64,000 bases of DNA. Source: Acidobacteriota bacterium (GTDB lineage: Bacteria > Acidobacteriota > UBA6911 > RPQK01 > CBDAPI01). The DNA is taken from the NCBI GenBank assembly GCA_965205615.1, contig CBDBHK010000020.1, positions 86,224-150,223 of the forward strand, in the 5' to 3' direction. Position 1 is the stretch's first letter. Every line of letters starts with the position of its first letter. The translations under genes and the position numbers were made by a program. The notes under the pieces are model-generated. The model saw nothing but the letters and a program-made list of their open reading frames with translations, did no database searches and had not been told where the DNA came from. Below, piece by piece: positions 5,001-56,083 of this stretch.

Positions 5001-5068
<68 letters not shown>

Positions 5069-5077
<9 letters not shown>

Positions 5078-7315: not shown

Positions 7316-9053
7316 CCCGCATAGATCACCGATAGGACCTCAAAAGGCCGCCCTGTTTGGTATAAAGCGTTTTGAATGAACGTTTTCACACGCCAAACGG
7401 AGGCGGTCCTTATGAGAACAGAGTGTAAACAAGCCAGGTTCGAATTTCACGGACTATTTCAACGCAAAGTGAAGGCGCGGTTCGACGGCGGGAAGATCAC
7501 CTCCGATGCAGGGGTGCTGCTGTTGCGAGAGGTCGAGAGGGGGACGGGTCTGATCGCCGGACTGGCTGAGTGTTTCAGGGATCACCGGGATCCGCGGTTG
7601 ATCGAACACACGGTCGAGGAGTTGTTGGGGCAGCGCATCTACGGACTCTGTCTGGGGTACGAGGATCTGAACGATCATGATCAGTTGCGCACCGATCCGA
7701 TGCTGGCGGTGGCGGTGAATAAGGCCGATCCGTTGGGGGAGAGGCGGCGGCAGGCCTCAGATCGGGGGAAGGCGCTGGCGGGCAGGTGTACGCTGAACCG
7801 GTTGGAGTTGACCGGCGCCGAGGTCGATGAGCAGGAGCGGTACAAGAAGATCGCGATGGACCCGGACCGGATCGACGGCTGGATGGTGGATGCCTTCGTG
7901 GAGTCCCACGAATCGGCGCCCGAGGAGATGGTGCTGGATCTGGATGCGACCGACGACCCGATCCATGGCCAGCAGGAAGGCCGGTTCTTTCACGGTTACT
8001 ACCGCCACTACTGTTATCTCCCGCTGTACATCTTCTCGGGGGAGCATCTGCTGTGCGCCCGGTTGCGGTGTTCCAATATCGATGGGGCCGCGGGATCGGT
8101 GGAGGAACTGGAACGGATCGTCGGCCGGATTCGGCAGAGCTGGCCGGAGGTCTCGATCGTCATCCGGGCCGACTCGGGCTTTTGCCGGGATGACTTGCTC
8201 CGCTGGTGTGAAGACCATCACGTGGATTACGTGATGGGGTTGGCCAACAATGATCGGCTCAAGTCAGAGAGAGCCGAAGCGATGACTCAGGCCGAAGCCG
8301 AGTTCAACGCCACCGGGCGACCGGCGCGGGTGTTCAAGGATTTCCGCTACCGGACTCGCCACAGTTGGACCTCGGAGCGACGCGTCGTCGGCAAGGCCGA
8401 GTTCCTGGACAAAGGCGCCAATCCCCGATTCGTCGTCACCTCCCTGTCGCCGGAACGCCTGGGGGCCCGCGCGCTCTACGAAGACTTCTACTGTGCGCGG
8501 GGCGACATGGAGAACCGCATAAAAGAACAGCAGTTGGGTCTGTTCGCCGACCGGACCAGCGCGGCAACGATGCGCGCCAATCAACTCCGGCTGTATCTGT
8601 CCTCCGCCGCCTACATGCTCATGCACGCCTTGCGTCGTCTCGGACTGAAGCAGACCCCCCTGGCTCGCGCTCAGTGTCAGACGATTCGCTTGAAGCTCCT
8701 CAAGATCGGCGCCCAAGTCCGCCTCACGGTCCGCCACGTCTGGATCTCCATGTCGGAAGCCTATCCCTACAGCGAGGTCTTCGCTGCCGTCGTTCGAAAC
8801 CTCCAGGCCATTCCTCTGCGCTGCTGAGGTCTGTCCCGATCAAACGCCCCCAAAAACGAAATCGTTCCATCGCTCAGGCCGAGCTCTGCCTGAATACATT
8901 CCGTCACGCTCTTCCGAACCCGAAAAACGCTCCATTCACGACCCTCCACACCACCGCATCACTCGACCTGGACCGGATCGATAGCGAAACTCTCAGAAAA
9001 CCGTTCCGGCCTGCCAAAATCACCTTCATTTCCAAATCGGTGATCTATGCGGG
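7316..9053 (+). mobile_element. IS1380-like insertion sequence, copy 1 (1738 bp), with 4-bp TTAG target duplications
   Basis: Terminal inverted repeats CCCGCATAGATCACCGAT at 7316 and its complement ending at 9053. TTAG lies at 7312..7315 and 9054..9057. It contains a single DDE transposase gene. Confidence 0.8.
7376..8827 (+). CDS. DDE transposase (IS1380/IS4-like family)
   Basis: 483 aa. It is nearly identical to the reverse-strand ORF 50476..51849. The family call rests on the fold FHGYYRHYCYLPLYIF..SIVIRADSGF and a ~1.7-kb IS with CC-initiated inverted repeats. Confidence 0.8.
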   Translation: MNVFTRQTEAVLMRTECKQARFEFHGLFQRKVKARFDGGKITSDAGVLLLREVERGTGLIAGLAECFRDHRDPRLIEHTVEELLGQRIYGLCLGYEDLNDHDQLRTDPMLAVAVNKADPLGERRRQASDRGKALAGRCTLNRLELTGAEVDEQERYKKIAMDPDRIDGWMVDAFVESHESAPEEMVLDLDATDDPIHGQQEGRFFHGYYRHYCYLPLYIFSGEHLLCARLRCSNIDGAAGSVEELERIVGRIRQSWPEVSIVIRADSGFCRDDLLRWCEDHHVDYVMGLANNDRLKSERAEAMTQAEAEFNATGRPARVFKDFRYRTRHSWTSERRVVGKAEFLDKGANPRFVVTSLSPERLGARALYEDFYCARGDMENRIKEQQLGLFADRTSAATMRANQLRLYLSSAAYMLMHALRRLGLKQTPLARAQCQTIRLKLLKIGAQVRLTVRHVWISMSEAYPYSEVFAAVVRNLQAIPLRC

Positions 9054-9403
9054 TTAGGCCTCCCAGCGGAGCGCACGCCAACATCTTCAGTATCGTTCGA
9101 AACGAGAACTGCTGCTATGGTCGTGGAACCAGCCATCTACTTAACTATTACAGTATTTTACTGTTATCGAGCACATCGGCCACACTCAGGCGCGCGTCTT
9201 ACCGAATTGGCTTCTCTCCACATCTTTGAACCAGCCCCAGACCTTGCAGTCACGGGCACAGCGTGGCGCCCAGGCCGCCTTCTCTTACCAAGAGGGATAG
9301 GGGGGGGCTAAGCCAGGGGACGCGTTGAAGGGAACAAGCTGCGTTTTTGGTGCCCGTATACGGATGAGGAAAAAGAGATGAGGAGATGAGCTGCACAGAA
9401 GAA

Positions 9404-36316: not shown

Positions 36317-36393
36317 GCGCCCGTAGCTCAGTTGGATAGAGCGCTGGTCTCCGGAACCAGAGGCCGCAGGTTCGAATCCTGCCGGGCGTACCA
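36317..36393 (+). tRNA. tRNA-Arg (anticodon CCG)
   Basis: GCGCCCG-TA-GCTC-AGTTGGAT-AGAGC-G-CTGGT-CTCCGGA-ACCAG-AGGCC-GCAGG-TTCGAAT-CCTGC-CGGGCGT-A-CCA. Confidence 0.9.
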
Positions 36394-43269: not shown

Positions 43270-44601
43270 TCAAGGGTACTTCGGTTCAGGTGCACGCCCT
43301 TCAGCTTGAAACGCCAGTACCACTGCCTGTTCGATCAACTCCGCGCCCCGCCGAAGTACTGACTTTCTCCAGGTCGCGTCCTGGGGGCAGAATGCATCCC
43401 CGAGCTTTCGTTTGGAGGGGTGATCGATATGCCCCTTTCCATGCTGGTGCCAGCGGTTCTCTTCTCTGAGGGCATGCAGTTGTCGCACCGGATGGTAGGT
43501 TCCAAACTCCTGGCAAACGAAGTCGGCCTTCGCCCTGGGAAGGACGCGAGGATAAAATCCACCCCTGATTCGATAGGCCACACTCTCATCGGGATCTAGC
43601 GGCTGGACACGAGGGCCAAAGATGTCACGCATCCGGTTTTGTTCCTCAGTAGAGACCAGCAGCGAGTCCTCTCCGAACGGCCCCAGTCCGGTGTGCACAT
43701 CGATGGCCACAACCTTCTCGGCTGTGTCCAGATGCTCCCCGACAAAGTCCTGATAGAGCTGCGGGCCCTGTTCCAGACTCTTCCCTCCGAAAAACAGGCC
43801 GTTCGGGTACTCGAACTGCCCTCCCGCCACGGCCTGTTTCAGAGTTGACATCCCATGTCGGAGGATCAGCCAGGCAGCTCTCAAGTAAAAGAAGTCCGCG
43901 GACGGCGGAGTGGGAGGGTTCAGAAAACTATTCAGCTTTGCATAGGATTCAGGAGCTCCGGCATAATCTTCATCTCCGGCAAGGAAGTTCCGGTTGAGAT
44001 CCACATTGTTCTCATTGACTCTTCTCAGCCAGCTCATGCCGTATGGATTGAGAACGTGGACAAGGACAATCGCTCCGTCGGCGGGAATGGCAGGCACCTC
44101 CTCCAGAAACTGCAGCTGAATGGCTGAGCCGGCAAAGCCCTCGACCCCATGTAGCCCCGACGAGTGAAGAAGGACACGGCGGGGTGCGGGATTGCCGAAC
44201 CAACCGATGTCGATGGTCAAGTCTTCACCATCCGGCCCTTTTGCATTCAGATTGAGGACTCTCAGTCGTCCCCCAGAGCTCTCGACTGCTCTTCTGAATC
44301 GAGACCGGGCTGTGACGTAATCAGGCGAAAAGTGCTCGCTGGCCATCGTATTGTCCTCCGCCCTAGTTCTTTCTGATTGTAGGAAGAAGAAGAATCCACT
44401 TCCGGCCATCAGCGTGAGGATCAAGACAATTGTGGCGACCAGAACTCCCCCAACTCTTACAGGCTTGAACCATCCTTGACCCATCAGGCTCTCCCAGCTG
44501 AGGAGTCCAACATTACTTCTGTCACCCCTTCCGAGATTCTTTCCAGCCAGTTGGGCTTGATCTCTCAATCCTGAAACGGCGCTTTTACCTGATTCACGCA
44601 T
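43270..44601 (-). CDS. membrane-anchored DUF2817 / M14 zinc-carboxypeptidase-like (succinylglutamate desuccinylase/aspartoacylase-related) protein
   Basis: A TM helix near aa 50-75. The HxxE-type zinc site LLHSSGLHGVEGFAGS, and the motifs DLNRNF, IDVHTG. Confidence 0.65.
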   Translation of the reverse strand: MRESGKSAVSGLRDQAQLAGKNLGRGDRSNVGLLSWESLMGQGWFKPVRVGGVLVATIVLILTLMAGSGFFFFLQSERTRAEDNTMASEHFSPDYVTARSRFRRAVESSGGRLRVLNLNAKGPDGEDLTIDIGWFGNPAPRRVLLHSSGLHGVEGFAGSAIQLQFLEEVPAIPADGAIVLVHVLNPYGMSWLRRVNENNVDLNRNFLAGDEDYAGAPESYAKLNSFLNPPTPPSADFFYLRAAWLILRHGMSTLKQAVAGGQFEYPNGLFFGGKSLEQGPQLYQDFVGEHLDTAEKVVAIDVHTGLGPFGEDSLLVSTEEQNRMRDIFGPRVQPLDPDESVAYRIRGGFYPRVLPRAKADFVCQEFGTYHPVRQLHALREENRWHQHGKGHIDHPSKRKLGDAFCPQDATWRKSVLRRGAELIEQAVVLAFQAEGRAPEPKYP

Positions 44602-44763
44602 TTGCTTTCTCCTTCTCTGCTATCCACGATAGTTGTGATCCAGACCGAGAAGCCACACCGGTGGGGACAGTTTTCAGAAGTGTCACCATTCGACAGGTTA
44701 GAATTGGGCAAAGCCATCAACTGGAGTTCCCCCGGTTTCGTGGACACCTAATCCTTTGGGAGA

Positions 44764-45090
44764 ATGGAGGACACGATGCCAAGAACAAGACGAGCTTATC
44801 CACCCGAGTTTCGCCAGCAGATAGTCGAGCTTCATCGAGCCGGGCGCAGCCCCGGTGAGCTGGCCCGAGAGTTTGAACCCAACGAACAGACGATCCGCAA
44901 CTGGATCGCCCAGGCAGACCTGGATGAAGGCCGTCGTAGAGACGGCCTGACGACGGTAGAACGAGCCGAGCTGCGGAAGTTGCGCAAAGAAAATAGGCAG
45001 CTGAGGGTTGAGCGGGAAATATTGGCAAAAGCCGCGGCCTGGTTCGCACGGGAGAGCGATCCGATTTCCAAGAAGTCTTCAGGTTCGTGA
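44764..45090 (+). CDS. IS3-family transposase OrfA (HTH)
   Basis: MPRTRRAYPPEFRQQIVELHRAGRSPGELAREFEPNEQTIRNWIAQ plus a leucine-zipper-like C-terminus. Confidence 0.85.
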   Translation: MEDTMPRTRRAYPPEFRQQIVELHRAGRSPGELAREFEPNEQTIRNWIAQADLDEGRRRDGLTTVERAELRKLRKENRQLRVEREILAKAAAWFARESDPISKKSSGS

Positions 45091-45474
45091 AAGTGAATCA
45101 GGCCGACTATCCAATCACCACCATGTGCCGTTTGCTGGGTGTCTCCACCAGTGGCTACTACGCGTGGGTCGATCGCGGACCTTCGACTCGAGATGAAGCG
45201 AATGCTCGTCTTCTGGAAACAATCAACGGGATCCACCAGCAAAGTCGTCGGACCTATGGAGCTCCCCGCATTACGGCGGAACTTCGAGAGGAAGGTCACC
45301 TGGTGGGCAAAAACCGGGTGGCCCGACTGATGAAAGTCGCCGGCATTGAAGGCGTTAGCCGCAGACGCAAGACACGCACGACCCTGAGAGGCCAAGACAG
45401 CCGTCCGGCTCCGGATCTGGTGGAGCGAAACTTCCAGGTCAGCCGCCCCAACCGACTGTGGGTTGCAGACATCA
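45087..45474 (+). CDS. IS3-family transposase OrfB, exon 1 (ends ..RLWVADI-)
   Basis: YGAPRITAELREEGHLVGKNRVARLMK… NRLWVADI, then interrupted. Confidence 0.8.
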
Positions 45475-46096
45475 GTGTGCCGCAGCAAGCGGCGTGAGAG
45501 ATGGGAGTAGGCCTCCCGCAACCGGCTTGCAGGAGCAGGTTGCAAACCACCGTAAGTGGCTGTGGTCAAAAGCCGCGGTCGTGAGCGTTACGGAAAAGGT
45601 GCTCTAGAAGCATCAGGTGTGGATCAGGAAGACGAACACAAGTGAACCACCGTTCAAGTGCCGAAAGGACGAGATGGTGTCGAAACCGGGGAGTTGATGT
45701 TGCCCCGGGACGAATCTGGCGGAAACCTGTCTACTGGCCAGGTGGCACCCGGCATAGAGGTGGCGTGAGCTTGATCTGGGCTCTCATGTTGAACTGCGGG
45801 AACCTGGAGCAACGATGCTAAGAGAAAGGCACAAGCAGAGAACCTGCGAGGCCGACAGTATCGAAGCGTTGCCCAGGGGCGGACAAGCTCGTAGTAGCGA
45901 TGAGGCTGTCGTAATGGCAGCGGAGCGAAGGGGCTTGGTCACTCGGCTACAGACAAGCGGCCAACTGCTAGGCAGGAGGAGCCCTTGAAAGTAGCAAAGC
46001 CATTTTGTGGCTTGAGTGATAGGAGCCGGATGAGCTGAGAGGTTCACGTCCGGTTCTTGGAGGGGCTGGGGGTGAGACTCCCCCGGCCTACTCAAC
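45475..46096 (+). ncRNA. ORF-less group II intron (622 nt)
   Basis: The 5' end is GTGTG. An EBS1 loop TGATGT at 45695..45700 sits inside hairpin CCGGGG…CCCCGG and is complementary to the exon-1 terminus ACATCA. Domain V at 46023..46056 (GAGCCGGATGAGCTGAGAGGTTCACGTCCGGTTC) carries the AGC triad and a GAGA tetraloop. Domain VI has a bulged A at 46090, 7 nt from the 3' end. Removing the intron restores the IS3 consensus [32 protein letters not shown]. Confidence 0.8.
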
Positions 46097-46557
46097 CGTA
46101 CGTGCCGAGTTGGGCAGGTTTCGTCTACCTGGCCGTAGTGGTCGACGCTTTCAGTCGTCGAGTGGTCGGCTGGTCGCTCAGAAATGATCTCAAGACCCGG
46201 CTAGTGACCGATGCCCTGCAAATGGCACTTCAAGAGCGTGAATCCAACGGGGTGATCCATCACTCGGACCAGGGGACGCAATACACGTCGATCGAGTTCG
46301 GGCTGCGCTGCAAGAGAGCCGGCATCAGACCCTCCATGGGCTCGGTCGGTGACTGTTATGACAACGCGCTGTGTGAGAGCTTTTTTGCCTCTCTGGAGTG
46401 TGAACTGATCGACCGGCACAGCTTCCGCAGCAAGCTGCAGGCCAGGCTTGCTGTCTTTGACTACATCGAGGGCTTTTACAACCCTCACAGGCGGCACTCG
46501 TCACTGGACTATCTGTCGCCGATCAACTATGAATCGAGGCACTCAGATGTGGCTTGA
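46097..46557 (+). CDS. IS3-family transposase OrfB, exon 2 (DDE integrase core)
   Basis: …[27 protein letters not shown]… HHSDQGTQYTS… DNALCESFF…. Confidence 0.8.
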
Positions 46558-46629
46558 TTCGAAAGCCGTAAACTGTCCACAAAAGTGGGGTAACTTCAAA
46601 CTGGAGCTGCGCACGAAACGGGCCCCGAA

Positions 46630-47571
46630 ATGGATCTTCGTATCAACCGGGAAAGTGAAGTCCCCATCCGAGATCAGCGGCGCGAGCAAATCATCTTTCT
46701 GGTGGCCACGACACAATTGAAACCTGAGGAGAAACTGCCGAGCGTTCGGGGTCTTGCTCGCCGACTTGGGATTCACCCCAACACGGTCAGCCGAGCGTAT
46801 GGGGAACTGGTTGAAAGGGGCTGGCTGATACGACATCGGGGGGCTCGCCTGGTGGTTCGTTCCGAGAGAGAAGACAAATCGTTGAAGCAGCCTGAGAATC
46901 TGGATGACCTTATTGACGAGATTCTGGAGAAATCAAGATCGCTTGGCTACGCGCCTCAAGATCTGAAGCAGCGCTTTCAAGAACGCATGGCAGTCCCGCC
47001 GCCCAGATCGCTTTTGGTGGTCGGACAGGAGCGAGCCCTGCGACATCTACTGCGAGCCGAGCTGAAGGAGGAGCTGTCCATGGCGATCGAGACGTGCTCG
47101 CTCGAGAGCCTGAAATCTCTGGGAGAGATTCCGGGCGTTCTAGCCGCCGCAACACCCGGTTCCTATCCGGGGGTGCGATCTCACATCGACAAGACTTGCC
47201 AGGTCGTGCGACTTGAGATGTCTCCTTATGAGGAGCACGTAAAGCTTATTCACAACCTGGGGAAGTCGGCCGTGATCGGGGTGGCTTCAATCAGCAAACA
47301 ATTCCTGGACATAGCCCGGGGCGTCCTGGCGCCAGTCGTGGGAGACAGGCACACGCTGCGAACCTTTCTCCTTCCGCAGGAACCTCCGCGAAGCCTGAAA
47401 GCCATCGATCTGATCTTTTGCGACTCGCTCGTGTTCCAACAGTTGAAGCTGTCTCATCCGGGCGATCATTCCCGGTTGGTTCTTTATCGAGCCCTTGCTC
47501 CAGCCTGTCTGGAGGAGATCTCAGGATTGCTCAATCCATCAAGATTGGATTCAACCGGGGTCTCAGATTAG
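46630..47571 (+). CDS. GntR-family transcriptional regulator
   Basis: N-terminal wHTH LPSVRGLARRLGIHPNTVSRAYGELVERGWL. The C-terminal ~230 aa domain is not assigned. Confidence 0.7.
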   Translation: MDLRINRESEVPIRDQRREQIIFLVATTQLKPEEKLPSVRGLARRLGIHPNTVSRAYGELVERGWLIRHRGARLVVRSEREDKSLKQPENLDDLIDEILEKSRSLGYAPQDLKQRFQERMAVPPPRSLLVVGQERALRHLLRAELKEELSMAIETCSLESLKSLGEIPGVLAAATPGSYPGVRSHIDKTCQVVRLEMSPYEEHVKLIHNLGKSAVIGVASISKQFLDIARGVLAPVVGDRHTLRTFLLPQEPPRSLKAIDLIFCDSLVFQQLKLSHPGDHSRLVLYRALAPACLEEISGLLNPSRLDSTGVSD

Positions 47572-48497: not shown

Positions 48498-48888
48498 GAG
48501 GGAGTCGTCTCCCTCCAGCCTTAGCCCGCATAGATCACCGATTTGGAAATGAAGGTGATTTTGGCAGGCCGGAACGGTTTTCTGAGAGTTTCGCTATCGA
48601 TCCGGTCCAGGTCGAGTGATGCGGTGGTGTGGATGGTCGTGAATGGAGCGTTTTTCGGGTTCGGAAGAGCGTGACGGAATGCATTCAGGCAGAGCTCGGC
48701 CTGAGCGATGGAACGATTTCGTTTTTGGGGGCGTTTGATCGGGACAGACCTCAGCAGCGCAGAGGAATGGCCTGGAGGTTTCGAACGACGGCAGCGAAGA
48801 CCTCGCTGTAGGGATAGGCTTCCGACATGGAGATCCAGACGTGGCGGACCGTGAGGCGGACCTGGGCGCCGATCTTCAGGAGCTTCAA

Positions 48889-50527
48889 CCCACATTCACC
48901 ATATAGGACCCCAAGATTGCTTGTCTGAATCGATGTAAACTACTATAATTAAAGGAGATATAGCACATAAAGGGGGCAAGGAATGGCTCACCCCAAGGGT
49001 GAAGGTGTGAAGGTCGGTTTTGATGGCAGTATCAGGCTTGAGTTTCATGGTGCTAAGGTCACATCGGATGCCGGACTTCTCGCCTATCGTGATCTGGATG
49101 AGGCGTTGGGTTTATTCGATAGTGTGCCCTTCGTGTTTCACGATTCGCGGACCGGGCGCAACATCCAGCACCACCTCACGGCCTTGATGCGTCAATCGGT
49201 ATACAGCCGTCTCGCTGGCTATGAAGATGTCAACGATGCCCATCGCTTATCGGTTGATCCGACGATGCGAAGGATCACCGGAAAGAAGCTCGACGATAAG
49301 AATGCCGCCAGCGCCAACACGATGGGTCGATTTGAGACCCAGATGCTGTCCGTCGAGAACAACCTGCAAGCCCTTTCGGAAGTCAATGGTCGATGGGTGG
49401 AAAGAGCGCTGCAGAAAACAACTCATCGACGCATCATTCTGGATATGGACAGTTCAGCTAGTCCGGTCCACGGCGAGCAAGAAGCCTCTGCCTACAACGG
49501 GCATTTCGGATGCACTTGCTACCATCCGCTGTTTTGCTTCAACCAGTTCGGAGATTGCGAAGGTTTCATGCTTCGGCCCGGCAACGTGCACAGTGCGGAC
49601 CGTTGGAAGGAGATGCTGGAACCAATCGTGGCTCGGTACGAGAAGAAGAAAGTCCGCAAATACTTTCGGGGTGATGCAGCCTTCGCCAAGCCAGAGATTT
49701 ATGAATACTTGGAGGAGAAGGGCTTTTTGTATGCCATCCGGCTTCCCGCCAACCAGGTGCTTCAAGAAAAGATCGAACACCTGCTGACCCGACCGGTGGG
49801 GCGCCCACCCAGAAAACCCGTTGTTTGGTTGGCCGATTTCAAATATCAAGCCGCCAGTTGGGACCGGCCTCGTCGGGTGATTGCCAAGGTCGAGTGGCAT
49901 CGCGGCGAACTCTTTCCGAGAGTCGGTTTCATCGTGACCAACAGGAGCGCACGAGCCCAAGGGGTGGTTCACTTTTACAACGGTCGCGGCACGGCTGAGC
50001 AGTGGATCAAGGAAGGCAAGTATGCCTTGAACTGGACGCGGTTGTCCTGCCAGCACTTTGTCCCGAATCAGGTGAGGTTGGCTCTGTTTGTTTTGGCCTA
50101 CAACCTGGGCAATTTTCTGCGCCGTCTGGTCCTTCCCAGAAGAATCAAACACTGGTCCCTTCGAACCCTATTGGCCAAGTTGATCAAGATCGGAGCGAAG
50201 GTGGTTCACCATAGTCGAATCGTGACGTTTCAGATGGCGGAAGTCGCGGTCAGCAAGGAGGTATGGGCCGAGATGTTATCTCGGATTGACCGCTTGAGAT
50301 GGATCAGAGCCTAGCACCAAGTGTTTCTGATCGAATGGGTGGAGAGGTGTCTCCACTGATCAGATTTCGGCAAAGGCGCCTGGATAACTCTGGGCTTAGA
50401 GGCCCTTTTCAGGCGGAAAGATGCCGAGGGAATCGTTGACGCGAGGGTGGAGGGCTGATAAGTTTTGATCATTCATCACCGGGAGGTCAGAGGAAATCGG
50501 ATCCGAAGTTGATATGAGGAATGTCGG
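48889..50527 (+). mobile_element. second, distinct IS1380-family element (1639 bp) nested inside copy 2, with a 5-bp TTCAA target duplication
   Basis: Terminal inverted repeats CCCACATTCACCATAT and CCGACATTCCTCATAT. TTCAA at 48884..48888 and 50528..50532 occurs only once in the uninterrupted copy 1. Confidence 0.8.
48983..50314 (+). CDS. DDE transposase (IS1380-family, distinct from the 7376..8827 type)
   Basis: 443 aa. IRLEFHGAKVTSDAGLLAYRDLDEALG…YEDVNDAHRLSVDPTMRRI is homologous to, but diverged from, the other IS1380-like transposase. Confidence 0.85.
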   Translation: MAHPKGEGVKVGFDGSIRLEFHGAKVTSDAGLLAYRDLDEALGLFDSVPFVFHDSRTGRNIQHHLTALMRQSVYSRLAGYEDVNDAHRLSVDPTMRRITGKKLDDKNAASANTMGRFETQMLSVENNLQALSEVNGRWVERALQKTTHRRIILDMDSSASPVHGEQEASAYNGHFGCTCYHPLFCFNQFGDCEGFMLRPGNVHSADRWKEMLEPIVARYEKKKVRKYFRGDAAFAKPEIYEYLEEKGFLYAIRLPANQVLQEKIEHLLTRPVGRPPRKPVVWLADFKYQAASWDRPRRVIAKVEWHRGELFPRVGFIVTNRSARAQGVVHFYNGRGTAEQWIKEGKYALNWTRLSCQHFVPNQVRLALFVLAYNLGNFLRRLVLPRRIKHWSLRTLLAKLIKIGAKVVHHSRIVTFQMAEVAVSKEVWAEMLSRIDRLRWIRA

Positions 50528-51849
50528 TTCAAGCGAATCGTCTGACACTGAGCGCGAGCCAGGGGGGTCTGCTTCAGTCCGAGACGACGCAAGGCGTGCA
50601 TGAGCATGTAGGCGGCGGAGGACAGATACAGCCGGAGTTGATTGGCGCGCATCGTTGCCGCGCTGGTCCGGTCGGCGAACAGACCCAACTGCTGTTCTTT
50701 TATGCGGTTCTCCATGTCGCCCCGCGCACAGTAGAAGTCTTCGTAGAGCGCGCGGGCCCCCAGGCGTTCCGGCGACAGGGAGGTGACGACGAATCGGGGA
50801 TTGGCGCCTTTGTCCAGGAACTCGGCCTTGCCGACGACGCGTCGCTCCGAGGTCCAACTGTGGCGAGTCCGGTAGCGGAAATCCTTGAACACCCGCGCCG
50901 GTCGCCCGGTGGCGTTGAACTCGGCTTCGGCCTGAGTCATCGCTTCGGCGCTCTCTGACTTGAGCCGATCATTGTTGGCCAACCCCATCACGTAATCCAC
51001 GTGATGGTCTTCACACCAGCGGAGCAAGTCATCCCGGCAAAAGCCCGAGTCGGCCCGGATGACGATCGAGACCTCCGGCCAGCTCTGCCGAATCCGGCCG
51101 ACGATCCGTTCCAGTTCCTCCACCGATCCCGCGGCCCCATCGATATTGGAACACCGCAACCGGGCGCACAGCAGATGCTCCCCCGAGAAGATGTACAGCG
51201 GGAGATAACAGTAGTGGCGGTAGTAACCGTGAAAGAACCGGCCTTCCTGCTGGCCATGGATCGGGTCGTCGGTCGCATCCAGATCCAGCACCATCTCCTC
51301 GGGCGCCGATTCGTGGGACTCCACGAAGGCATCCACCATCCAGCCGTCGATCCGGTCCGGGTCCATCGCGATCTTCTTGTACCGCTCCTGCTCATCGACC
51401 TCGGCGCCGGTCAACTCCAACCGGTTCAGCGTACACCTGCCCGCCAGCGCCTTCCCCCGATCTGAGGCCTGCCGCCGCCTCTCCCCCAACGGATCGGCCT
51501 TATTCACCGCCACCGCCAGCATCGGATCGGTGCGCAACTGATCATGATCGTTCAGATCCTCGTACCCCAGACAGAGTCCGTAGATGCGCTGCCCCAACAA
51601 CTCCTCGACCGTGTGTTCGATCAACCGCGGATCCCGGTGATCCCTGAAACACTCAGCCAGTCCGGCGATCAGACCCGTCCCCCTCTCGACCTCTCGCAAC
51701 AGCAGCACCCCTGCATCGGAGGTGATCTTCCCGCCGTCGAACCGCGCCTTCACTTTGCGTTGAAATAGTCCGTGAAATTCGAACCTGGCTTGTTTACACT
51801 CTGTTCTCATAAGGGCCGCCTCCGTTTGCGTGTGAAAACGTTCATTCAA
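50528..51849 (-). CDS. DDE transposase of IS copy 2, C-terminally truncated by the nested insertion
   Basis: The ORF-track frame 50476..51849 matches the 7376..8827 protein up to …QCQTIRL. It then reads into the nested IS terminus. Confidence 0.75.

Positions 51850-56006: not shown

Positions 56007-56083
<77 letters not shown>

Follow-up and report, generated by a model that had tools for sequence, protein, structure and literature searches.

A group II intron lacking its own protein gene in the transposase gene of an IS3-family element from an Acidobacteriota bacterium

The intron and its host element

The window analyzed here, 64,000 nucleotides (nt) of contig CBDBHK010000020.1 (forward strand, positions 86,224 to 150,223) from the Acidobacteriota assembly GCA_965205615.1, carries an IS3-family insertion sequence (IS) whose transposase frame orfB is split by an insert of 622 nt. 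This insert, 45475..46096 on the + strand, is a complete group II intron but no longer carries a gene for a protein of its own. It opens with GTGTG (45475–45479), as the original prediction for this locus had stated, and closes with ...CTCAAC at 46096, in keeping with the GUGYG/AY termini of group II introns; that prediction, of a group II intron without an open reading frame (ORF) splitting IS3 orfB, gave exact coordinates. The parts of the element are listed below, in window coordinates and with protein lengths in amino acids (aa).

44719–44721, no strand: target-site duplication AAC, left copy; the empty site reads ...CATCAACTGGAGCTG...
44722–46598, + strand: IS3-family insertion sequence, ends fixed by an empty allele (locus L001), measuring 1,877 bp as found and 1,255 bp once the intron is subtracted
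44722–44746, + strand: left terminal inverted repeat, TGGAGTTCCCCCGGTTTCGTGGACA, a 20/25 match to the reverse complement of 46574–46598
44764–45090, + strand: orfA, 108 aa, HTH_Tnp_1 domain, stop codon at 45088–45090
45087–45474, + strand: orfB exon 1, in the −1 frame relative to orfA, ending in ...LWVADI and the A of a Thr codon
45475–46096, + strand: ORF-less group II intron, from Rfam matches and co-linearity with full-length siblings
46097–46557, + strand: orfB exon 2, the CG of the Thr codon followed by YVPSWAGF... to the stop
46574–46598, + strand: right terminal inverted repeat, from comparison with the left repeat and from the empty allele
46599–46601, no strand: target-site duplication AAC, right copy, from the empty allele

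The search with Rfam group II covariance models that had been proposed as a check was run over the whole window at gathering thresholds and returned five matches, three to tRNAs and two to group II models, with domain 1 and domains 5–6 both above the gathering score. RF01999 (group-II-D1D4-2) matches 45503–45618 on the + strand over the full-length model (111.9 bits, E 3e-22), and RF00029 (Intron_gpII, domains 5–6) matches 46021–46096, likewise on the + strand and over the full-length model (59.6 bits against a gathering score of 40, E 3.4e-9), terminating exactly at the proposed 3′ splice site. Excision of the 622 nt joins GAC ATC A↓CG TAC (the arrow marks the insertion point here and below) and yields an uninterrupted OrfB of 282 aa with HTH_21 and rve domains, which scores 345.9 bits against the NCBIfam IS3 model NF033516 (cut-off 160). 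The insertion had been placed between two codons; excision does restore orfB, but the intron lies in phase 1 within the Thr codon. In unspliced mRNA, read-through from exon 1 enters the intron and stops after 8 codons, giving a product of 136 aa without most of the DDE core. The longest open stretch within the insert has 103 codons and no reverse transcriptase (RT) motif, so the insert does not hold the RT/maturase ORF of an autonomous mobile intron; the claim that no intron-encoded protein (IEP) is present holds, the whole window being free of the YADD motif.

The IS3 element itself is well delimited. Its termini are 25-bp imperfect inverted repeats (TGGAG...CTTCA, 20/25 identical) with TG...CA ends, and a Logan contig (L001, run ERR13605531) carries both flanking genes at 99.6–99.7% identity with no IS between them. 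The insertion is thus polymorphic. It occupies a divergent spacer of about 146 bp between a DUF2817 gene (43270–44601, − strand) and a gene for a GntR-type regulator (46630–47571, + strand), in an intergenic span of 44602–46629, with the right end of the IS about 30 bp upstream of the regulator gene, and could affect both flanking promoters. No canonical A6G/A7 slippery heptamer was seen on reading 45020–45095, where no systematic test was run. Neither a second intron nor a second IS3 copy lies within the 64-kb window, and an exact-protein look-up with the exon-2 ORF (46057–46557) found no record.

Ribozyme fold and exon recognition

A consensus fold computed with RNAalifold from 17 relatives (68–100% identical) resolves the six domains of a group II ribozyme, D1 to D6, at intron positions 6–325, 326–406, 410–463, 464–546, 549–582 and 586–620, respectively. 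The consensus comprises 196 pairs. The window copy keeps every one of them canonical, and at 94 both partners have changed among the relatives, although the alignment is the one from which the structure was derived. Domain I contributes 106 of these pairs, every one canonical in the window copy and 55 with compensatory changes. The elements of the ribozyme, including the exon-binding site (EBS) and intron-binding site (IBS) sequences, are as follows.

45468–45474, + strand: IBS1, GACATCA, spanning the codon for the first Asp of the catalytic DDE triad
45480–45799, + strand: domain I (RNAalifold), including the RF01999 match at 45503–45618
45695–45701, + strand: EBS1, UGAUGUU, in the loop of a CCGGGG/CCCCGG hairpin, intron positions 221–227
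45800–45880, + strand: domain II (RNAalifold)
45884–45937, + strand: domain III (RNAalifold)
45938–46020, + strand: domain IV remnant with basal stem, D4a arm and D4b stub, from the RNA fold and comparison with full-length introns
46023–46056, + strand: domain V (RF00029) with AGC triad, 2-nt bulge and GAGA loop
46060–46094, + strand: domain VI with a bulged branch-point A at 46090, from the Rfam alignment and consensus fold
46097, + strand: candidate IBS3, a C; C at +1 is conserved across the clade

Domain V at 46023..46056 has the predicted AGC triad with its G·U pair, 2-nt bulge and GNRA (GAGA) loop, and its lower helix measures 8–9 bp rather than the 10 originally given. The bulged A that had been placed in domain VI, 7 nt from the 3′ end, is A46090; it is intron position 616, the seventh base from the 3′ end, and is unpaired in both the Rfam alignment and the consensus fold.

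Exon recognition was examined by an unbiased complementarity scan of 24 relatives, in which every 5-nt window of domain I was compared with every exon offset. The top match is intron 221–227 with exon −7 to −1, where 114–115 of 120 positions pair, versus 93–102 (standard deviation 2.4–3.3) with exons shuffled among sequences. This is the TGATGT loop (45695..45700) that had been proposed to pair with the exon end ACATCA, and the pairing extends to 7 nt, all seven positions being paired in the window copy. EBS1 furthermore covaries with the exon in six relatives (L120, L049, L142, L079, L033 and L054), of which five read:

L120: EBS1 UGAAGU, IBS1 ACUUCA
L049: EBS1 UCUCGU, IBS1 AUGAGA
L142: EBS1 UGACGU, IBS1 AUGUCA
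L079: EBS1 AGAUGU, IBS1 ACAUCU
L033: EBS1 UUUCGU, IBS1 AUGAAA

Position 45697 inside EBS1 (intron position 223) is polymorphic for A and G among near-identical copies. The A pairs perfectly with the ACATCA (D-I-T) site, and the G allele is found in three copies residing in IS1380 genes (L121, L089, L096) and in L114 at a non-IS site. Further upstream, TGG at exon −16 to −14 is conserved in the targets.

Derivation from a full-length, protein-encoding intron

Related introns are widespread. A BLASTN search of plasmids gave 488 records with related introns, among which full-length Gloeocapsopsis and Cupriavidus introns align to positions 1–530 and 534–622 of the window intron with an ltrA gene in between, and a domain V pattern scan over one genome per species gave at least 116 loci. 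Full-length relatives lie in CBDEGM, a metagenome-assembled genome (MAG) of a sister Acidobacteriota genome that holds at least 10 copies of a 1,837-nt intron, 99% identical to positions 1–531 of the window intron and 100% identical to positions 531–622. Six full-length copies, differing from each other at 0–6 positions, encode a protein of 422 aa with a UUG start, a YADD motif, RVT_1 and GIIM domains and no endonuclease (En) domain (TIGR04416, 395 bits, cut-off 300). The window intron equals full-length positions 1–531 plus 1746–1837, with 1,215 nt missing in frame and the junction ...CCATTT/TGTGGC... at 46005/46006. Against the consensus of the six copies it differs at four sites only: a loop position, the EBS1 A/G position, a G·U pair changed to G-C, and a C-G pair changed to U·G. 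In full-length copies such as L062 and L164 the IEP frame crosses the 3′ strand of D4 and stops in the GAGA loop of D5, and remnants of this frame persist in the window copy:

45975–45981, + strand: intact Shine-Dalgarno sequence GGAGGAG, in the D4a arm
45985–45987, + strand: UUG start codon, in the D4a arm
45985–46038, + strand: residual 17-codon mini-ORF, MKVAKPFCGLSDRSRMS, in which IEP codons 1–7 are fused in frame to the last 10, with the stop in the D5 loop
45997–46013, + strand: D4b stub hairpin AAGCCAU-UUU-GUGGCUU, with the deletion junction 46005/46006 inside

With ORF remnants on both sides of the junction, the alignment shows the window copy to be, at the level of sequence, a deletion derivative of the 1,837-nt IEP-encoding intron. 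The parent intron appears to be active in related Acidobacteriota. An independent ORF-less copy, L103, and at least 10 full-length copies lie together on one 3.4-Mb contig of CBDEGM. The closest MAG among the matches listed, CBDBGQ (Acidobacteriota), holds a second copy of the IS3 element with its intron (L084; 1,879 bp, 99.7% identical, different flanks) as well as L040, a copy truncated by an IS1380-type element. Other damaged copies comprise one of 1,488 nt with a rearranged ORF, a 5′-truncated copy and several, both ORF-deleted (ΔORF) and full-length, that are interrupted by IS elements (loci L094, L086, L155, L166, L167, L172 and L040); the intron population is under heavy IS traffic. Two distant relatives that match RF01999, L210 on E. 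coli plasmid NZ_CP148580.1, which encodes a 408-aa IEP, and the ORF-less L034 on a Rhizobium plasmid, lack GUGYG at the expected 5′ end (AATGTG...).

One IS3 element in three states

Exact-protein look-ups with OrfA and with the truncated 136-aa OrfB in ENA long-read assemblies and JGI metagenomes returned 20 loci, all with IS arms 99–100% identical to those of the window. The same element occurs in three states. Three loci (L154, L157, L158) are intron-less and encode an intact 282-aa OrfB. In two (L164, L173) the very same IS3 site is occupied by the 1,837-nt full-length intron, its IEP intact; to these may be added the partial contigs L160 and L161 and two copies, L167 and L172, with the IEP interrupted by another IS. 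The ΔORF intron with the identical junction is found in L165/L168, L169, L170, L171 and L163, and in L155 and L166 with a further IS inside the intron; L156 is a 635-nt variant. The window-type junction thus occurs at no fewer than 10 distinct flanks (the window, L084, L040, L165/L168, L169, L170, L171, L163, L155 and L166). Several loci show 3-bp target duplications (AAC, CCA, AAG, TAC and CAG).

The ΔORF copies share the single-nucleotide polymorphisms (SNPs) 93C, 223A and 264C with IS3-resident full-length copies, and 435T with L160 and L161, and the deletion therefore arose within the IS3-resident lineage. JGI sample 3300047102 contains a full-length and a ΔORF copy with the same 5′ haplotype. 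L165/L168 lies on a 39,499-bp ENA contig, ctg234457_12x_c, on which the IS3 element with its ΔORF intron adjoins RepA_C and ParA genes; with the name suffix "_c" taken as circular, the contig is probably plasmid DNA, by which the composite may have spread horizontally. A scan of metagenomes with a junction-specific pattern gave no matches.

Recurrent ORF loss at the D4b helix

Three elements make up the folded domain IV of the ΔORF intron, namely a basal stem, the D4a arm and the stub hairpin (−36.5 kcal/mol, z −3.6). In full-length introns the two strands of the stub correspond to IEP codons 5–6 and to a segment near the C-terminus, and from this position at both ends of the IEP it follows that the D4b helix closes the ORF-containing loop. 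The window deletion cuts exactly at the base of this helix. Its strands covary across the relatives (AAGCCA/UGGCUU, AAACC/GGUUU, AACCG/CGGUU, AGUCG/CGGCU and AGUCU/AGGCU), and a small formal test found pairing in 87% of cells versus 78.1 ± 2.1% when shuffled, none of 500 shuffles reaching the observed value and slid registers giving 12–52%.

The window copy is not the only one cut here. In L103, from which 1,216 nt have been removed, the junction lies 6–7 nt away from that of the window, and in L042 (Competibacteraceae) it is homologous to that of the window. Descent of L042 and the window copy from one ORF-less ancestor was weighed but rejected, as L042 is closer to the full-length L132 (95.8% identical) than to the window intron (88.9%). 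L142 and 35 metagenomic relatives have longer D4b stubs, and L194 is another case. On these comparisons ORF loss has recurred independently at least four times in the clade, clustered at one D4 helix. Template switching or slippage across the helix base, followed by selection for a compact domain IV, is a plausible cause. A gapped-pattern scan of metagenomes returned 36 ORF-less relatives, none with the window-type junction. These 36 (L174–L209, JGI metagenomes) form, together with L123 and L142, a sister lineage with variable D4b stub hairpins. Its target is conserved, hairpin-like and not of the IS3 type (GAGACATTTTGGnGACAnGAtGTCA↓CCTGrAAATCAG), and in several distinct copies C replaces G at intron position 1 (CTGTG).

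Target sites of the clade

Most relatives of at least 76% identity sit at TGG-N6-GAY-(ATC/TTC/GAA)-A↓C, encoding W-x-x-D-(I/F/E)-T↓(Y/F), in which the Asp is the first residue of the DDE triad. When the exons of ten host genes were joined and scored against NCBIfam, IS3 was the best model and above cut-off for six (L111, L138, L132, L042, L056, L079), and IS481 was best for the L120 gene, just below the model cut-off. For two others the family is IS6, the L033 gene (Gloeocapsopsis plasmid) passing the cut-off and the partial ORF of L049 falling below it; both introns are inserted at homologous W-x-V-D-E-T↓Y/F codons of the IS6-family transposases, with EBS1 altered to match. The clade thus appears, from these host genes, to have moved between IS families while keeping its position relative to the first catalytic Asp. 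The distant relative L052 lies in an IS66 gene at a different position. Near-identical copies in CBDEGM are also found four times in an IS1380 transposase gene (GFIVT↓N) and at a few non-IS sites, EBS1 being compatible when G·U pairs are allowed.

The window is itself rich in nested IS elements. An IS1380-family element (48889–50527, transposase 48983–50314) is nested in another of the same family (48522–51697), with a sister copy at 7376–9057. An 88%-identical homologue of the nested element in CBDEGM bears the full-length intron four times at GFIVT↓N. The window copy holds no intron, and in its site, CATCGTGA↓CC at 49935/49936, a G at −2 mismatches EBS1. The tRNA genes of the Rfam scan lie at 5003–5076 (−), 36317–36390 (+) and 56010–56083 (−).

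Proposed mechanism and alternative explanations

We consider it likely that the insert is a ΔORF derivative of the 1,837-nt intron homing to orfB at ...GAC ATC A↓CG..., and that its splicing, and possibly its mobility, is provided in trans by the IEPs of sibling introns. The unspliced mRNA yields only a 136-aa OrfB, the ribozyme core is intact and near-identical to that of IEP-dependent siblings, and the D4a arm is kept, all of which points to splicing in trans by a sibling IEP. An in-frame deletion of 1,215 nt removed the whole RT/maturase ORF and spared the ribozyme domains D1–D3, D5 and D6. It also left the D4a arm, where the ribosome-binding site and the start codon lie and where, to judge from introns of subgroup IIA, the IEP would bind. 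Splicing and any retrohoming would then depend on the 422-aa IEP of full-length siblings elsewhere in the cell; where this IEP is supplied, exon ligation would restore orfB and enable the IS to make transposase. The composite of IS3 and ΔORF intron may have spread by IS3 transposition, by trans-mobilized retrohoming into IS3 copies, or by both. The trans-acting maturase that the original prediction had called for is accordingly part of the best-supported mechanism, full-length siblings with intact IEP being present in CBDEGM and, in metagenome assemblies, in the same IS3. An IEP-encoding relative in the same genome is seen for the independent ORF-less copy L103 (CBDEGM), and for JGI sample 3300047102 at the level of the sample. 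For the window's own genome we infer the presence of an IEP, as we do the route of spread and the deletion mechanism.

Several observations weigh against this reading. The YADD motif is absent from all frames of the 64-kb window, so no IEP gene lies there, and among the matches listed for CBDBGQ there are ORF-less copies only. No segment complementary to exon −8 to −16 scored above shuffled controls as an EBS2/IBS2 pairing, the candidates (hypervariable intron 193–199 and the 240–268 loop) showing no complementarity beyond them. All copies with the window junction sit at one site of one IS3, which makes trans mobility of the intron inseparable from hitch-hiking on IS3, and the ΔORF loci, at least 10 in number, are explained equally well by IS transposition as by retrohoming in trans. 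The SNP haplotypes of IS arms and intron are not strictly linked, a hint that the element was invaded more than once; with so few variable sites, however, the haplotypes are weak evidence.

The same facts are open to another explanation, in which the ΔORF intron is a dead passenger that neither splices nor moves and permanently inactivates each IS3 it occupies, its copies having been transposed in trans by the transposase of intron-less IS3 elements. The restriction of all same-junction copies to one site of one IS3 fits this account, as do the 3-bp target duplications at several copies; L154, L157 and L158 could supply the transposase, and for RmInt1 inefficient splicing in vivo, with a resulting block of the host IS, has been reported (PMC5894124, PMC4238363). 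The state of the intron argues the other way: the ribozyme is undecayed, with just four structure-neutral differences and all 196 pairs kept, and both the D4a arm and the EBS1–IBS1 pairing are intact. The occurrence of the same intron haplotype in different IS3 haplotypes, and vice versa, hints at independent invasions, albeit from few SNPs, and ORF-less relatives of other lineages occupy several targets with matching EBS1. We therefore regard a dead passenger as unlikely. Protein-independent self-splicing in vivo, as proposed for C.te.I1 of Clostridium tetani, would make ORF loss free of cost and is more improbable still. The catalytic core is complete and the fold compact, and one bacterial precedent exists (PMC4424553), but in the IEP of the siblings, to which the intron is 99% identical, the maturase (GIIM) domain is still intact, the intron has retained the D4a arm, it shows no sign of adaptation to protein-free splicing, and group II splicing in vivo is protein-dependent as a rule (PMC4238363). 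That the insert is no intron at all, and instead a piece of some other transposable element or a structure formed by chance, is a possibility of next to no weight in our view: beyond the abundance of nested IS elements in the window no support for it was found, and the insert is co-linear with, and 99% identical to, IEP-encoding introns. Together with this co-linearity, two independent Rfam matches with the right spacing and ends and the exact restoration of the frame on excision refute both versions, and an IS fragment is excluded in particular, the insert having neither terminal repeats nor a target duplication of its own.

Significance

Bacterial group II introns that lack an ORF and live beside IEP-encoding relatives have been described as a category. 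The window intron is genuine but, as a non-autonomous derivative, unexceptional; it extends the short list of such introns by a well-documented case from Acidobacteriota and agrees with the rule of co-residence with IEP-encoding introns. A wider reading, which we put forward tentatively and think rather less likely to be right than wrong, is that the clade both specializes in the W-x-x-D-[I/F/E]-T↓Y motif of DDE/rve transposases and repeatedly sheds its ORF by structure-guided deletion at D4b. Under its first half the clade would have jumped between IS3, IS481-like and IS6 elements and across phyla by retuning EBS1, always at a site two codons past the first catalytic Asp; under its second half the resulting non-autonomous introns would make transposase production conditional on a sibling IEP. 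If true, ΔORF introns would be a hyperparasite layer controlling IS activity. In the searchable literature we found neither one-position transposase targeting nor D4b-guided ORF shedding described. The natural series, with three states of one IS3, at least four independent ORF losses at one helix and homologous catalytic-motif codons in three IS families, may merit the attention of specialists as a tractable system for the origin of non-autonomous introns, for retargeting and for a possible gating of host transposon activity by introns.

Comparison with known systems

The two Rfam families matched here, RF01999 and RF00029, describe group II sub-structures and are silent on ORF content, phylogenetic class and target. 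Bacterial introns without an ORF are almost always found together with relatives that encode an IEP (PMC4424553), En-less IEPs are found in classes A, C, D, E and F (PMC3552965), and introns homing into IS transposase genes have been described before (PMC4424553, PMC2882425, PMC3522654). One of these, E.c.I4 of Escherichia coli and Shigella, is reported at specific positions of IS3-like transposases (IS629, IS911, ISEc16, ISEc31), and its proliferation is limited by the available IS copies (PMC3522654). Its copies, unlike the window intron, are IEP-encoding, and no close DNA relative of the window intron was found in E. coli genomes, the best match being 66% over positions 49–459.

RmInt1 of Sinorhizobium meliloti (class D/IIB3, in ISRm2011-2; PMC5894124, PMC4238363) resembles the window clade in its En-less RT/maturase IEP of about 420 aa and in homing into an IS transposase gene, where the state of the intron limits the host IS. 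It differs in being full-length and in residing in an IS630-type rather than an IS3 element. The megaplasmid records of S. meliloti 1021 and 2011, its presumed carriers, match the window intron in D5–D6 only, at 77%, and RmInt1 is thus not of the same lineage; an IEP on an S. meliloti accessory plasmid is 55% identical to the 422-aa IEP.

A parallel in origin is TeI3 of Thermosynechococcus elongatus. Like the window intron it is ORF-less and arose from an IEP-encoding intron by deletion in domain IV, and some of its copies also lie inside an IS element (ISEL1). Mobilization in trans has been demonstrated for TeI3 by the IEPs of TeI4 (Mohr, Ghanem and Lambowitz 2010, PMC2882425), and in introns of subgroup IIA the region critical for IEP binding is D4a (PMC2882425); the trans mobilization that is experimental in T. 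elongatus would be matched here by a mobility that we deduce from comparison. The T. elongatus IEP has D and En domains, whereas that of the window clade is En-less. The 17 T. elongatus copies all go back to one ancient deletion and have since diverged to new targets, whereas the window deletion is recent (99% identical to its parent), its same-junction copies occupy one IS3 site, and ORF loss has recurred independently in the clade.

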